NCBI RefSeq assembly: GCF_011045215.1
Contig: NZ_CP049201.1
Strand: one strand, 5' to 3'
DNA: 64,000 nt
Source: Escherichia coli
Lineage (GTDB): Bacteria > Pseudomonadota > Gammaproteobacteria > Enterobacterales > Enterobacteriaceae
In this document: in pieces, positions 23,501-54,150 of the stretch
How positions within the stretch are numbered: the stretch's first letter is position 1
Layout: each line of letters starts with the position of its first letter
The notes under the pieces: generated by a model
Database searches by the model: none
Told to the model about the DNA's origin: nothing
The model's input: the letters and a program-made list of their open reading frames with translations, nothing else
Position numbers and translations under genes: made by a program

Positions 23501-24350
23501 GTAACGCCGCAAAAGGTTGCCGTGCGGGGGATAGCGTCGGAATGGCGGTGAGTACTTTATCTACACAGCGTTGCCACTCATCTTCTGAAGCGAGTGAAAG
23601 ATGATGACATAGACGTTGATGCCAACTAGGTAGCGATTCTGCTTCGTGATTAGGTGGAATGATGGTGGTTACTGCGCCTTTTACTGGTTTATATTTGAGT
23701 TGAAGGGCAAAAAGGGCGATTTCAACGGCGCTTTCCAGACCACAGCGAATGACTAAGTCATCGACCAGTTCATCTGCAGAGTAAGAGTTCCAAAAACTCC
23801 AGAGCAATGCTGCATCAGATTGCGCACTCCCTGTCTGTTGATTATCCAGAATTCGCCTTTGTAACTCAGCAAAAGCCTGCTGCCAGTTTTCAGGATAAGA
23901 GCGGTAATTGTTGTCGGGATCATATGCCCTGGTGTTATCTGCAATACGCTTCCATATCTCACCGTCTTTGCGCAGATAATTGATCTCTCTGGGGCGAGAG
24001 CGATGAGGAAAAGCAAATCGGTTAATATCGTCAGTTACCGGAATAACTGCATCATCAGCCAGCCACGGGCGTTGGTTTTTACTCTCAGGGGAAGATTCAA
24101 CTTCAGGAGTGGCTTTGGTGATGGGGGAGATATGCACGTTTGCTGAAGCATTTTCCACATAGCCTTTTTTCGTTTTCTCTGCGATCAGCTTAAGCTCCGC
24201 TTTTGCCGCTGCCGCAGCATCTGCAAAACTTTTTATCTGGCTTTGCCCTTTGGTGCCAACTTTTCCCCAACTGATATGCAACTCGTTTCCCTGTTGCTCC
24301 ACCGCCCAGAATTTATGTGATTTTTCGTCCTGATAGATAAAGTGTCTCAT
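20541..24350 (-). CDS. molR: giant WGR-domain/DUF4132-type protein, intact here; K-12 counterpart is the molR pseudogene
   Basis: 1269 aa uninterrupted ORF adjacent to metG; N-terminal WGR-like domain (MRHFIYQDEKSHKFWAVEQQGNELHISWGKVG...); symbol assigned from position next to metG as I recall the K-12 map. Confidence 0.7.
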   Translation of the reverse strand: MRHFIYQDEKSHKFWAVEQQGNELHISWGKVGTKGQSQIKSFADAAAAAKAELKLIAEKTKKGYVENASANVHISPITKATPEVESSPESKNQRPWLADDAVIPVTDDINRFAFPHRSRPREINYLRKDGEIWKRIADNTRAYDPDNNYRSYPENWQQAFAELQRRILDNQQTGSAQSDAALLWSFWNSYSADELVDDLVIRCGLESAVEIALFALQLKYKPVKGAVTTIIPPNHEAESLPSWHQRLCHHLSLASEDEWQRCVDKVLTAIPTLSPARQPFAALLLPERPDIAHAIALRYADQNVPAMAWLRLVITDDTALSTVEKYDFPPLYRDFRNFRAYLAMLLANNGVRGVSRILLEFTEDHSDNPTYLFERISETENLVKWLWKTNHPDAIQILILGVIGKKKHLEYLSKASQKHPAAAIAAYATLLAIHEDKEWRKALVKLITATPELVCDVIPWVNAKAAGILSECRLQPVTEVCEYATADMLPQLLVSPPWMTKEKKKNTPVFDLPVLPVPSVSDVTPEIAKRLTRTYLVTRFQQIAQQQATKQTLFTDLPPMKKASWEKQLIPLTPEQQILWHLGFEKWRESGEKIYEKIPAPQSAVDALLRFDFPALNAEFAQYHNNAYKSWDLMALCYLPGQQAISFLNQIVKEDNYSGEENILAIFGSAAIPAFMTCLQRNPRRLCFFTFFLGVSELALPMAQQLQKKMSYEDARNWLTDYPRHAAAGLLPVALGKQGKDRDCARQALRLLVNLNQRETIEEIAQGYNQPDVLAALATLFDSDPLEEYPAKIAPLSGFYQFTLWRRPRLKSNNLPLSDDAMRHLGTMLSFPRDITAYAGLDIIREIFTRESLAEFGWDLYTAWTEAGAPAKENWAFTSLGILGNDDTARKLTPLIRAWPGESQHKRAVSGLDVLADIGSDVALMLLNGIARKIKFKALQEHAREKINIVAENRGLTMAELEDRLAPDLGLDSSGSLTLDFGPRKFTVGFDETLKPVVCDANGKVLKDLPKPNQSDDKTLATDAVNLFKQLKKDVRAIASQQITRLEQAMCQRRRWTAEQFRLFLVEHPLVRHLTRRLLWGGYNDENALITCFRVAEDSTYSDAQDELFTLPAGNIGIPHVLEIPPESAAAFRQIYVDYELLPPFQQFERGSYHLADNERNVHELSRWNGRLCQAGRIVGLERRGWQRLEESGSVYAMRKSTPYGALELETEPFSLIYGETGYSDLLPVESVKITAPYDRYGKQSSPTFSMLDDITASELINDIESLFD

Positions 24351-24449
24351 TCTGCATCCCTGTAATTTTATCCAGTTAAATGCAGATGCTACCAGTATTT
24401 ATGCGGGTTAGAGAGAGACAAAATCGCAAGAAAACAACTTTAGGAATTT

Positions 24450-49018: not shown

Positions 49019-49095
49019 GTATTGTGCAAAACAGATCATTCACCAATGGTCCCCCTTCGTTTACACTAGCCACAATTGAATATGGGTAAATGACG

Positions 49096-49869
49096 ATGAA
49101 TTCATTCGAGCGAAGGAATAAGATCATCCAATTAGTGAATGAACAGGGAACCGTGCTTGTTCAGGATCTGGCGGGAGTATTTGCTGCCTCGGAAGCGACA
49201 ATCCGTGCCGATTTGCGCTTTCTCGAACAAAAAGGCGTGGTTACGCGCTTTCATGGCGGTGCGGCGAAAATAATGTCCGGTAATAGTGAAACCGAGACCC
49301 AGGAAGTCGGGTTTAAAGAGCGATTTCAGCTCGCCAGCGCGCCAAAAAACAGAATAGCGCAGGCGGCAGTCAAAATGATCCACGAAGGGATGACCGTTAT
49401 TCTCGACAGCGGAAGTACGACAATGCTTATCGCCGAAGGATTAATGACCGCCAAAAATATCACGGTGATTACCAACAGTCTCCCGGCAGCGTTTGCCCTT
49501 TCCGAAAATAAAGACATTACTCTGGTCGTCTGCGGTGGCACGGTCCGCCATAAAACGCGCTCGATGCATGGTTCCATTGCCGAGCGTTCATTGCAGGATA
49601 TTAATGCCGATTTAATGTTTGTCGGTGCTGATGGTATTGATGCGGTTAATGGTATTACGACCTTTAATGAAGGTTATTCGATTAGCGGGGCGATGGTCAC
49701 CGCCGCAAATAAAGTGATTGCCGTTCTCGATTCATCGAAATTTAATCGTCGCGGTTTTAATCAGGTACTGCCAATCGAAAAAATTGACATTATTATTACC
49801 GATGATGCTGTGTCAGAGGTGGATAAACTGGCATTGCAGAAGACACGGGTAAAATTAATTACGGTGTAG
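49096..49869 (+). CDS. gatR: DeoR-family repressor of the gat operon, intact
   Basis: 257 aa from MNSFERRNKIIQLVNEQGTVLV (DeoR HTH) with sugar-binding C-domain; uninterrupted reading frame. Confidence 0.85.
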   Translation: MNSFERRNKIIQLVNEQGTVLVQDLAGVFAASEATIRADLRFLEQKGVVTRFHGGAAKIMSGNSETETQEVGFKERFQLASAPKNRIAQAAVKMIHEGMTVILDSGSTTMLIAEGLMTAKNITVITNSLPAAFALSENKDITLVVCGGTVRHKTRSMHGSIAERSLQDINADLMFVGADGIDAVNGITTFNEGYSISGAMVTAANKVIAVLDSSKFNRRGFNQVLPIEKIDIIITDDAVSEVDKLALQKTRVKLITV

Positions 49870-49950: not shown

Positions 49951-50850
49951 TTAACGCAATAATGGGCAATCTGGTGGTAATCGACAACGCAACGCCGCCG
50001 GAAGTATTTCAATATGAAAGTTTTGCCCACTCAACGGTTCGCCATCAAGATTAAAAGTGATTTCGTGTGGGGCTTGTATATCAAACCACGACGAAGCGCC
50101 TTCGATAATATTCGGGTTATCTTCGTCAGATTTTAAGGTTGATACGAGAGCTGGAAGAATTTCATCGCCGGTAAAAATGCGCAGTTGCAGCAAGCCATCG
50201 TTAATTAACGCGTTCGGACACAATTGCTGACCGCCACCGGCCTGACGCCCGTTACCAATACCAATGACCAGGGCGTCACCTTGCCAGTGAAAGTTTTCAC
50301 CGCGGATTTCACAACGGTCCGGTTGCAGAGTATCCATGCGCATTAAGCCATGAATGATGTAAGAGACGCCACCCAGCGCGGCTTTTAATTTTTCCGGCGT
50401 TTCTGTGGTAATACGCGTCCCAAACCCGCCTGTCGCCATATTAATAAAACAGGTTTGTTTGTTGACCTGCGCCATATCTATCGCAATGGCGTTACCGGCA
50501 ATTGCCAGTTTCAGCGCCTTATCCAGTGCCTCAGGAATCCCTACACTGGTGGCAAAATCATTGGCGGTTCCTAATGGCAAAATTCCCAGCGCGGGTATGT
50601 TATCCCCCTCACACTGAATCAACGCCGTAGAAACTTCATTAATGGTGCCATCGCCACCACCGGCAATCACCGTTGCGACGCCCAACTTCCGAGCCTCCTC
50701 TACATATCGTGCGGCATCGCCTTTCTCCCAGGTGACCCGCACATGGATCGTCATTCCTTCCTCACGCAACAGCATAATTGCTTCGCGCAATGGTAAATTG
50801 TCAGTACTTTTGCCATTAAGAATCAGTAAGCTGGCGGGAAATTCTGCCAT
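49951..50850 (-). CDS. yegS: DAG-kinase-like lipid kinase
   Basis: 299 aa ([18 protein letters not shown]...GGGDGT). Confidence 0.9.
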
Positions 50851-51254
50851 GATCGTATGTGCCTTTATGATTGGTCTGTAGATAGTGTAGAGCAGAAAAG
50901 AAAAGGTGGAGTCAGAACAGGATGAAAGTCGGAGGATAAAAAGTCAGTTCAAGTATGGAGGATTCAGTGGTTACCACCAGGAGCTTGCAATTGGGACAGC
51001 GAATACTAACGGCAGCCACCGATAAATGTTAAAAAAGAGCATATACCTAATATTCAACTAAACAGTGGCATCTTCAATATAATATATTAAAGCCCCCATG
51101 GAGTTACCCGGAAGGGCCTCCATGTCCGTAATTCCTACTTATGTAGGAAATGTTGTACAGAACATTTATTATAATCCTATTCAATTATAATAATCAGCCA
51201 TTATTATATTTAAACACTAGAGAGTGTCGTTGGTATTTAATGGGGAAAGGTGAG

Positions 51255-51572
51255 ATGAAAAAGATAGCTGCTATATCATTAATTAGTATTTTTATTATGT
51301 CTGGTTGTGCTGTGCATAATGATGAGACAAGTATCGGTAAATTTGGTCTTGCATATAAAAGTAATATTCAGCGTAAACTCGATAACCAATACTACACCGA
51401 AGCCGAAGCTTCTTTAGCCAGGGGCAGAATATCTGGTGCAGAAAATATAGTAAAAAATGATGCAGCCCATTTCTGTGTTACTCAGGGCAAAAAAATGCAG
51501 ATAGTTGACCTGAAGACAGAAGGTGCAGGATTACATGGCGTCGCTCGTCTGACATTCAAATGTGGAGAGTGA
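51255..51572 (+). CDS. yegR: small lipoprotein of unknown function
   Basis: 105 aa from MKKIAAISLISIFIMSGC (lipobox); ORF track starts 35 codons upstream. Confidence 0.8.
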   Translation: MKKIAAISLISIFIMSGCAVHNDETSIGKFGLAYKSNIQRKLDNQYYTEAEASLARGRISGAENIVKNDAAHFCVTQGKKMQIVDLKTEGAGLHGVARLTFKCGE

Positions 51573-51730
51573 GAATATTTTTTGGTAAGCGTCAAACATG
51601 CGCGTTCTGGCTGTGCGTAGCCGGAACCTGTGGGAGCACGATGCCGATAAGTGTAAGGCATCGTGCTATGAAGGGAGATTCTATCGATGTGGTCAATGGA
51701 AGACGGTGACCAGGGATAGGGCTTATGCAT

Positions 51731-51817
51731 AAAAAATAAGCCCGTGTAAGGGAGATTACACAGGCTAAGGAGGTGGTTCCTGGTACAGCTAGCATTTTAT
51801 GGGTTATGTTTTTCAGC
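51731..51817 (-). ncRNA. cyaR: Hfq-dependent sRNA CyaR (RyeE)
   Basis: Minus-strand sequence gctgaaaaacataacccataaaatgctagctgtaccaggaaccacctccttagcctgtgtaatctcccttacacgggcttatttttt matches CyaR as I recall it, including the intrinsic terminator. Confidence 0.85.
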
Positions 51818-51851
51818 GAAACGGATGATAACCTTAATAAATGCAGCTGTA

Positions 51852-51867
51852 TGTGATCGGTTTCTAA
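51852..51867. promoter_or_regulatory. candidate CRP site (TGTGA-N6-TCTAA) about 41 bp upstream of the cyaR 5' end
   Basis: One perfect half-site and one degenerate half-site; position fits the class II CRP activation known for cyaR. Confidence 0.4.
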
Positions 51868-51901
51868 GAATTTTCCATCCGGGAAAAATAATCGAAATTA
51901 A

Positions 51902-53263
51902 TCACTTACCGTGTGGGTTACGCGTGGTTTCCCCGGAGAAATTACGCATCAGCAGCGCGTAATTTAGCTCAAGATCCTGCGGCACCGGGAGCCACACAGT
52001 ATAACCATCGCCTGGTGCTACCGGCATAGCTTCGCCTTTGGCGTTTTCCATCTGCTCAAGGGTAAAGTTAATGTTGCCTTGCGGCGTCATCAGCTCAAGG
52101 CTGTCGCCAACGGAGAATTTATTTTTCACCGCTACCGCCGCGAGGTCCCCCTTGCGCTCACCGGTAAACTCACCAACAAACTGCTGGCGGTCAGAAACCG
52201 AATAACCGTATTCGTAGTTCTGATAATCGTCGTGAGTATGACGACGCAGGAAACCTTCGGTATAGCCACGATGCGCCAGACCTTCCAGAGTTTCCAGCAG
52301 GCTGGTATCGAACGGTTTGCCCGCAGCGGCGTCATCAATAGCTTTGCGGTAAACCTGTGCGGTGCGTGCGCAATAGTAGAAAGATTTGGTACGGCCTTCG
52401 ATTTTCAGCGAATGCACGCCCATTTTGGTCAGGCGTTCAACATGGGCGATGGCGCGCAGATCTTTCGAGTTCATGATGTAAGTGCCGTGCTCATCTTCAA
52501 ACGCGGTCATATACTCGCCCGGACGCTGGGCTTCTTCGATCATAAACACTTTGTCGGTTGGCGCGCCGATACCCAGCGTCGGCTCAACATTTTGCACCGG
52601 AATCGGCTCGTACTTGTGTACGATGTTGCCAACTTCATCTTCTTTCCCTTCCTGGACGTTGTACTCCCAGCGGCAGGCGTTGGTGCAGGTACCCTGGTTC
52701 GGGTCGCGCTTGTTGATATAGCCAGAGAGCAGGCAGCGACCGGAGTAGGCCATGCACAGTGCGCCGTGAACGAAGATCTCGATCTCCATATCCGGCACCT
52801 GATTACGGATCTCTTCAATCTCTTCCAGCGACAGCTCGCGAGAGAGGATCACGCGGGTCAGGCCCATTTGCTGCCAGAATTTCACCGTCGCCCAGTTTAC
52901 GGCGTTAGCCTGCACCGAGAGGTGGATCGGCATTTCAGGGAAGTGCTCACGCACCAGCATAATCAGCCCTGGATCGGACATAATCAGCGCATCCGGCCCC
53001 ATTTCCACCACCGGTTTCAGGTCACGGATAAAGGTTTTCAGCTTGGCGTTGTGCGGTGCAATGTTGACCACGACATAAAACTTTTTCCCCAGCGCGTGGG
53101 CTTCATTGATGCCGAGCTGAAGATTTTCGTGGTTGAATTCGTTGTTGCGCACACGCAGGGAGTAACGCGGCTGGCCCGCATAAACAGCATCTGCGCCATA
53201 AGCGAAAGCGTAACGCATATTTTTCAGCGTTCCCGCCGGGGAAAGGAGTTCCGGTTTAAACAT
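51902..53263 (-). CDS. trhP: peptidase U32-family protein required for tRNA ho5U34 hydroxylation
   Basis: 453 aa (MFKPELLSPAGTLKNMRYAFAYGADAVYAGQPRYSLR...); K-12 yegQ. Confidence 0.9.
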   Translation of the reverse strand: MFKPELLSPAGTLKNMRYAFAYGADAVYAGQPRYSLRVRNNEFNHENLQLGINEAHALGKKFYVVVNIAPHNAKLKTFIRDLKPVVEMGPDALIMSDPGLIMLVREHFPEMPIHLSVQANAVNWATVKFWQQMGLTRVILSRELSLEEIEEIRNQVPDMEIEIFVHGALCMAYSGRCLLSGYINKRDPNQGTCTNACRWEYNVQEGKEDEVGNIVHKYEPIPVQNVEPTLGIGAPTDKVFMIEEAQRPGEYMTAFEDEHGTYIMNSKDLRAIAHVERLTKMGVHSLKIEGRTKSFYYCARTAQVYRKAIDDAAAGKPFDTSLLETLEGLAHRGYTEGFLRRHTHDDYQNYEYGYSVSDRQQFVGEFTGERKGDLAAVAVKNKFSVGDSLELMTPQGNINFTLEQMENAKGEAMPVAPGDGYTVWLPVPQDLELNYALLMRNFSGETTRNPHGK

Positions 53264-53365
53264 AATTCTCTCGTTCTGATGACAGGTCAGATCCGCTTCA
53301 CCTGATGAAGCGGTTAGGGGAGTGCCCCCACTTTAAGGGCGGGCATTGTAGCGCAATCGGCGGGT

Positions 53366-53662
53366 TTAGCTCCAGTGTAAATGTCTGGTGGCGTCCTGGT
53401 TTTGGTTAAGGATACGAATGACGATAATTTCCCCTGGTGATTGCAGGAAATAAATTACGTGGCGTTCAAAAGGAAGAACAAAAATACCTTCGCCTAATTC
53501 AGGTCTGGGCGTACCTATATTATTGTTACTCAGAATCTGGAGAACGTCTGAAAGATGTTCCACATATCTGTCGGCTTGTGGTTCGCCGAAATGGTGATAA
53601 CTGTAATACCAGATGCCTTCTAAATCCTCATTGGCTTTTGGCATGAGTTTAATAATACGCAC
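53366..53662 (-). CDS. ParE/RelE-superfamily type II toxin
   Basis: 98 aa from GTG, or 92 aa from ATG at 53644; ParE-like pattern (EDLEGIWYYSYHHFGEPQADRYVEHL ... IYFLQSPGEIIVIRILNQNQD); starts 1 nt after the antitoxin stop. Confidence 0.7.
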   Translation of the reverse strand: MRIIKLMPKANEDLEGIWYYSYHHFGEPQADRYVEHLSDVLQILSNNNIGTPRPELGEGIFVLPFERHVIYFLQSPGEIIVIRILNQNQDATRHLHWS

Positions 53663-53663
53663 A

Positions 53664-53915
53664 TTATTTCCTTATCCCTGCTTTCACCTTCCGTAAAAAC
53701 GCGTCCTTTTCCCACGGCTGAGCTTCACCACTACTCAACCCTTCTGCAAGCATGTCACGTAACGCTTGCAGGCGAGACTCTGCTTGCTTTTCTCGAAGTA
53801 AGCGCAGTGACTCACGGATCACTTCGCTTTGGGTGCGATAGTCGCCGGATTCAATTAAGGACTCGATAAATTCACGCAACTCATCGCCGAGATCAACCGT
53901 CATCGTTCTGGCCAT
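53664..53915 (-). CDS. ParD-family (RHH/CopG-like) antitoxin
   Basis: 83 aa MARTMTVDLGDELREFIESLIESGDYRTQSEVIRESLRLLREKQ..., typical ParD (COG3609-like) N-terminus; immediately upstream of the toxin. Confidence 0.7.
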   Translation of the reverse strand: MARTMTVDLGDELREFIESLIESGDYRTQSEVIRESLRLLREKQAESRLQALRDMLAEGLSSGEAQPWEKDAFLRKVKAGIRK

Positions 53916-53928
53916 GTTTATGCTCTCC

Positions 53929-53947
53929 TGTAAGTAAAAATCTTACA
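53929..53947. promoter_or_regulatory. palindrome TGTAAGt-N5-TCTTACA just upstream of the antitoxin start; candidate autoregulatory operator
   Basis: Inverted repeat seen in sequence next to the antitoxin ribosome-binding site; operator role inferred from type II TA paradigm. Confidence 0.35.
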
Positions 53948-54112
53948 TCAGTGTATGTCATAAACCGGATAGCGTCACGAAAAGTATTAGAAGATATTTT
54001 GGCAGATGAACATGTTCAGGAGGATAAGCATGGAGATGTTAAACAAAGAAAGCACAATGAGTATTCATCAGTGTCCACTATTTTAATGGCGCAGGTAAAT
54101 AAATAAGCGTTA

Positions 54113-54150
54113 TTTGGAAATAAAGCCGGACGCCAACAACCCACGCCCGG
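54113..54150 (-). terminator. candidate terminator downstream of yegP
   Basis: Minus-strand stem gccgggcg/cgtccggc followed by a T-rich run. Confidence 0.4.

Follow-up and report, generated by a model that had tools for sequence, protein, structure and literature searches.

Is the short interval between yegR and yegQ in this Escherichia coli chromosome an empty phage attachment site, and has it been occupied before? Within the 64,000-nucleotide stretch of DNA that was analysed (the window), the interval covers 51573-51901; it starts 1 base past the yegR stop codon and ends 1 base before the stop codon of yegQ (trhP). Inside it lies cyaR (ryeE; 51734-51819, minus strand), a small regulatory RNA gene recognised by a full-length match to Rfam RF00112 (model positions 1-85; 100.7 bits against a gathering score of 47, E 1e-19). 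Since cyaR is on the minus strand, its 3' end faces yegR (51255-51572, plus strand), which according to the open reading frame and the RefSeq annotation encodes a predicted lipoprotein of 105 aa (PF27694). The gap between the yegR stop codon and the cyaR 3' end, for which an earlier note on this DNA had given approximately 160 bp, measures 161 bp (51573-51733). The conserved right-hand neighbour of cyaR is yegQ (51902-53263, minus strand), assigned from its open reading frame and the annotation of matching records, while on the left the 3' end of cyaR has yegS (49951-50850, minus strand) as its ancestral neighbour, as judged from its open reading frame, annotation and position in outgroups. 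A terminator scan of 51100-52000 yielded the CyaR terminator (51766-51739, minus strand) as the sole terminator-like site, and a permissive Rfam search of 50850-51900 returned no RNA family except cyaR.

The evidence for an attachment site starts with a 27-bp sequence, AAAAAATAAGCCCGTGTAAGGGAGATT, at 51731-51757, which is an exact match to the core of P2 attP. It has a single match in the 64-kb window, with 0 mismatches (27/27), and 0 matches are expected in shuffled sequence. An independent BLAST search of phage genomes with the region gave P2 (AF063097) 24355-24382 at 100% identity, and the attP annotated in that record (24356-24382) is identical to the window core. On one side of attP, AF063097 has the ogr terminator, an integrase P-arm site (24293-24320) and an IHF site; on the other side are Cox sites, int and the P' arm. 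In the window, the core contains the last 24 nt of cyaR, i.e., the terminator loop, the 3' half of the stem and the U-tract. Because the phage carries the same 27 bp covering the terminator end, integration would rebuild the CyaR terminator and leave cyaR intact in a lysogen.

P2 integrase is a tyrosine recombinase that works with IHF, and its recombination chemistry and site preference are established P2 biology. At this locus, strand exchange by P2 integrase and IHF would take place between the attP core (27 bp) and its identical counterpart in the chromosome. We take the position between yegR and yegQ to be the P2 site locI, the preferred site in E. coli C. The attB at locI of E. coli C is reportedly the subject of work by Yu, Bertani and Haggard-Ljungquist in 1989, and Barreiro and Haggard-Ljungquist are said to have defined the P2 att sites and the K-12 remnant in 1992. 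Compared to locI of E. coli C, which has the identical 27-bp attP core at the same position between yegR and yegQ, nothing material is different in the window. ATCC 8739 (Crooks, E. coli C lineage) shows the same empty layout, with the window allele differing from it by 6 substitutions and one A in an A-run. Judged from the sequence, 51731-51757 is thus very probably the unoccupied primary chromosomal attachment site (attB, locI) of P2 and its close relatives, coinciding with the 3' end of cyaR, and none of the results speaks against this assignment. A strain with the window allele would then be predicted to be lysogenised by P2 at locI, like E. coli C.

Occupied versions of the same site are found in other strains. 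The distance between yegR and yegQ is 959 bp in K-12 vs 329 bp in the window, and in the alignment the 630 bp that are extra in K-12 consist of ogrK and a truncated gene D (yegZ). The statement in the earlier note that these genes lie between yegR and cyaR in K-12 is therefore right, and the two strains do not have a short spacer in common. In MG1655, the annotation gives a 'cryptic prophage PR-X' at 2167183-2167811, overlapping the 3' end of cyaR. The left end of the K-12 insert is a truncated copy of the core, AAAAAATAAGCCCGTGTAG, with D sequence directly after it; the right end has the P arm of P2 and a full-length core that leads into cyaR, and resembles P2 attR. PR-X has the same insertion point as the site in the window, but ogrK and the truncated D, which lie between yegR and cyaR in K-12, are absent from the window. 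When 50930-51760 of the window was searched with P2 queries (tblastn and blastn), no similarity to ogr, D or int was found except for a short non-coding arm relic, which agrees with the claim that the gap is without ogrK- or yegZ-like genes. PR-X itself has neither int nor cox, and its left core is truncated, so that precise excision of PR-X is impossible. It is what was left of a prophage (D', ogrK and the P arm) after a deletion that extended from within the left core into gene D.

A complete version is present in STEC309, where a 33.2-kb P2-like prophage occupies the site with the 27-bp core at both ends, 33,192 bp apart. Its integrase, C and cox genes adjoin yegR, and D and ogr adjoin cyaR. 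A four-way alignment of the window, STEC309 attL, STEC309 attR and P2 attP displays the exchange of arms round an identical core (BOB' x POP' -> BOP' + POB'). Both the K-12 remnant and the STEC309 prophage start and stop at the 27-bp core, and these common breakpoints, together with the exact match to the attP core, bear out the earlier note in its view of the flank as an unoccupied attachment site. As a side observation, the STEC309 prophage has a SIR2-family gene and a DUF6602 gene between its tail-fibre and tail-sheath genes; the two look like anti-phage defence cargo in the variable region of P2.

To put numbers on the different states, 5,426 complete RefSeq E. coli genomes were surveyed, and the locus was found in 5,423 of them (99.9%). 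The site is empty, defined as a contiguous match over a 181-bp query centred on the core, in 4,202 genomes (77.4%). A P2-type attL junction (spacer, core, P' arm and int) is present in 817 (15.1%), and the left junction of K-12 PR-X in 356 (6.6%). In occupied genomes, an 851-bp BLAST query breaks exactly at the edges of the core, into 1-608 and 582-851. Occupied and empty strains thus both exist, the comparison for which the earlier note had called. With 77% of genomes empty, an unoccupied site is the rule; it is K-12, and not the strain of the window, that represents an unusual state of the P2 site.

Whether the site in the window was never filled or was emptied again is a separate matter, since excision restores attB exactly, and 'unoccupied' and 'cleanly excised', the two options offered at the outset, look alike in sequence. 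The lineage could once have carried a P2-like prophage or a K-12-type remnant that was lost by precise Int/Cox excision, so that the site has been 'cured'. Frequent turnover is suggested by the approximately 15% of genomes that are lysogenic at the site, and the core of the window is the exact P2 version, GCCCGTG, with a G-U pair in the terminator, while some strains have GCCTGTG. The empty state is, however, the 77% majority across very different strains, a frequency that makes a simple empty site the economical reading. Moreover, a PR-X junction is present in only 356 genomes, and those among the matches listed are K-12 laboratory derivatives; PR-X, for the reasons given above, could not have been lost in this way. 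We therefore regard a cured site as improbable, and continue with the reading that the site in the window is simply empty.

The core itself is not invariant, as is clear from the strains with a 1-nt variant such as ST131 (GCCTGTG vs GCCCGTG at the equivalent of 51731-51757). With this change, the CyaR terminator stem of ST131 has A-U in place of the G-U pair, and the P2-identical version of the window is the weaker-pairing one. The weaker-pairing, P2-identical core may be a trace of phage-derived sequence. Outside E. coli, Kluyvera georgiana and K. ascorbata have the exact 27-bp P2 core at their cyaR, and in both species approximately 0.75 kb, encoding an HTH/antitoxin-like protein, is inserted between yegS and cyaR.

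An empty P2 site at cyaR is a correct finding but known biology. A table in the publication on the E. coli W genome has 'cyaR RNA' as an insertion site that is occupied by Wphi2 (P2) in W, by ogr-D' in K-12 and by P2*B in B, and is empty in Crooks (PMC3032704). The same table gives 'rybB ncRNA' as a further insertion site of P2-type prophages, which confirms the statement of the earlier note that the 3' ends of sRNA genes serve as targets for the P2 family (PMC3032704). Att sites at rybB (P2-type), ssrA (Fels-2, SopE-phi and CP4-57) and tRNA genes (phage 186) are located, like the one at cyaR, at the 3' ends of genes for small stable RNAs. At all of these sites the phage carries its own version of the RNA gene's 3' end, and integration rebuilds the gene (PMC3032704, PMC3448106). 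The cyaR site differs from the others in that the block of identity is short (27 bp), with just 24 nt within the gene. The cyaR att site is a hotspot beside an sRNA gene at which prophages and defence genes turn over repeatedly. The only addition made here is an apparent older P2-type layer under the site, which appears to be unannotated.

This layer is first seen directly beside the core, where 51670-51718 aligns to the P arm of P2 attP and constitutes a decayed copy of it. The stretches TCGATGTGGTCAATG (15/15) and GTGACCAG (8/8) match P2, and both their order and their side relative to the core agree with the phage. Local alignment gives a score of 22, compared to 9.4 +/- 1.3 for shuffled sequences (maximum 15.5), and blastn gives 27/31 identities to P2 24293-24322, the annotated 'Int P arm' site. 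Of the integrase arm repeats, for which P2-type enzymes have the consensus tgTGGaCa (PMC3448106), the first, TGTGGTCA, is intact and the second is degenerate, and the IHF region has lost approximately 16 bp. An O158:H23 allele, in which about 11 additional bases of the P arm are preserved, bridges the window allele and P2. The site is therefore empty of recent prophage only: its left flank retains an older P2-type arm relic.

Directly to the left of this relic, at 51651-51680, direct-repeat families D2 and D3 outline a possible third copy of the core, interrupted and tentative, made up of GTGTAAGG, 12 nt and AAGGGAGATT. Its score is reached by 42 of 20000 shuffles and by 2 of 804 native tiles. 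The arrangement hints at a deletion relic similar to PR-X.

The likeness between the spacer and the P arm could also be read in the opposite direction, with an ancestor of P2 having taken up bacterial DNA beside cyaR by imprecise excision, in which case the spacer would be ancestral intergenic DNA. Imprecise excision is a known route by which phages capture host flanks, and the block in common is short (approximately 50 bp). However, that block is the annotated arm-binding site of P2 integrase, and its tgTGGaCa motif is shared by P2-type phages integrating at other att sites (PMC3448106). In addition, the spacer and yegR are not found beside cyaR in most other Enterobacterales, and E. albertii, the divergent E. 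coli strain SCPM-O-B-8794 and Salmonella diarizonae each have their own, different P-arm-like stretch beside cyaR. A bacterial origin of the arm sequence is thus very improbable, even more so than a cured site, and a decayed phage arm is the reading that we retain. Larger pieces are present at cyaR in other genera: two Citrobacter youngae genomes have ogr beside cyaR, one of them also D, and one Enterobacter genome has an integrase fragment. In a separate case, a 9.7-kb contig filed as 'MAG: Collinsella sp.' carries E. coli cyaR together with P2 ogr (100% protein identity) and is almost certainly a binning contaminant.

The P-arm relic forms the end of a larger block. The 766 bp from yegS to the cyaR 3' end (50965-51730), which we call the yegR segment, have a G+C content of 40.3% (window, 50.4%), and yegR is the only gene in this AT-rich stretch. 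At the edge on the yegS side, a scan with the core revealed a degenerate copy, AAAAAGTCAGTTCAAGTATGGAGGATT, at 50938-50964, matching at 18/27 positions. Matches of at least 18/27 occur at 3 of approximately 128,000 positions in the window (both strands), one of which is the true core. The segment (50938-51757) is thus bordered by direct repeats of the core, with 27/27 matches on the right and 18/27 on the left. The left copy is kept in K-12, STEC309 and OkiPb01695, and it is placed exactly where the alignment to the segment-free arrangement stops. The possibility that the left copy is a pseudo-cyaR was considered and rejected, as the score of 15 (9.9 +/- 1.6 for shuffles) is reached by 13 of 1000 shuffles and 5 of 389 native segments, and there is no Rfam match.

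The whole segment is missing from most other Enterobacterales. We scanned one genome per bacterial species with the cyaR terminator plus seed and obtained at least 120 loci. Among the matches listed, 87 have yegS to the left of cyaR, and in 43 of these no more than 130 bp separate the yegS start codon from the cyaR terminator, compared to 890 bp in the window; yegR is present at none of the loci listed. In E69, a divergent strain that bears the name E. coli and whose YegS protein is 94.8% identical, yegS is 95 bp from the terminator and yegR is absent; the window is longer by 795 bp, which corresponds to the 766-bp segment, one 27-bp core and a 2-bp indel. Among the 5426 complete RefSeq E. coli genomes, by contrast, essentially none is without the segment, and one has a partial deletion. 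H40, a candidate for a segment-free E. coli, was rejected, being a lysogen with a rearranged left side.

Against an older insertion at the core stand the gene content of the segment and the low match (18/27) of the left core copy. Almost all YegR (PF27694) homologues are from E. coli or Shigella; the rare distant ones are in unrelated contexts, either an insertion-sequence-rich region or an unrelated chromosomal site, and not in P2-like prophages. A strong PHROG hit (phrog_21109) had pointed to YegR as a phage protein, but this was rejected, since both phage-database records behind it (vB_EcoM-720R8 and 'Phage TP') include bacterial flank. Searches against the right end of P2 (tblastn and blastn) found no phage gene in the segment; the integrase and the P' arm are absent, leaving the P arm and the core, and the P-arm relic of approximately 50 bp is the sole phage-like sequence of the segment.

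From the P-arm relic, the absence of the segment in outgroups, the degenerate left core and the low G+C content taken together, we infer that the yegR segment may be what remains of an ancient site-specific insertion into this core. On balance, we lean towards a history in which a P2-type element entered the cyaR core in an early ancestor of E. coli, decayed to approximately 0.8 kb (yegR, the degenerate left core and the decayed P arm) and reached fixation in the species. The interrupted third core copy suggests that integration may have happened more than once. Later P2 phages would then re-use the surviving right-hand core of the fossil insertion. If this history is true, yegR has its origin in a mobile element, and the cyaR terminator has long been a target of the P2 family across the Enterobacteriaceae, in keeping with the relics in E. 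albertii, Salmonella diarizonae, Citrobacter youngae and Enterobacter. If confirmed, it would also be a clear case of an att site outlasting repeated rounds of integration and decay by virtue of its place in a conserved RNA terminator.

The spacer between yegR and the core contains a prominent hairpin, which the earlier note had placed at 51637-51667 with a perfect stem of 10 bp. An inverted-repeat search confirms that the stem is perfect, but it consists of 11 bp and the start is 1-2 nt off: the arms, AGCACGATGCC and GGCATCGTGCT, are at 51635-51645 and 51657-51667, on either side of an 11-nt loop (51635-51667 in total). The predicted stability is -24.6 kcal/mol (z = -6.2 vs dinucleotide shuffles). 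A second hairpin, GTTCTGGCTG / TAGCCGGAAC with a 4-nt loop, is located at 51604-51627 in the predicted fold of 51590-51733 (z = -4.5). As the identity that recombines is the 27-bp core, the hairpin at 51635-51667 is unnecessary for att function. It could form a 3'-terminal structure of yegR mRNA, or it could be inert relic DNA.

A role in RNA, in which the hairpin and its neighbours would function in the yegR transcript, for example as an atypical terminator or by stabilising the 3' end, and would not be an inert relic, has several points in its favour. The stem is strong and located 63 nt downstream of the yegR stop codon, and the entire spacer is unusually structured (z = -4.5 to -5.3). The hairpin is also kept in alignments with K-12, ST131, STEC309 and ATCC 8739, the sole change seen in the stem being a C -> T in ST131 that retains a G-U pair. 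However, the hairpin has no Rfam match, and the alleles contain no compensatory changes by which the pairing could be tested. In the divergent strain SCPM-O-B-8794 it is missing altogether, with a different relic at that position, although the second hairpin (51604-51627) is retained there. As a Rho-independent terminator it was rejected, given that a T-run is absent on both strands and that the scan finds the CyaR terminator alone. A functional RNA element is therefore less likely than not, if clearly more probable than a cured site or a bacterial origin of the arm.

Several other differences between strains were seen around the site. Directly after the yegR stop codon (the equivalent of 51573 in the window), ST131 and an O158:H23 strain have an AT-rich insertion of approximately 171 bp that is present neither in the window nor in K-12. 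On the far side of yegQ, between yegQ and yegP, the window has a parDE toxin-antitoxin pair (ParE PF05016, ParD PF03693) at 53366-53915, within an insert of approximately 750 bp (about 53355-54125). STEC309 also has the pair, while K-12 and OkiPb01695 have only approximately 146 bp there, so that a second locus, at a distance of 1.5 kb from the att site, is polymorphic for the presence of an insert. To the left of yegS, gatR (49090-49869), for the DeoR-family repressor of the galactitol operon, is intact in the window, whereas the K-12 copy is split by IS3.
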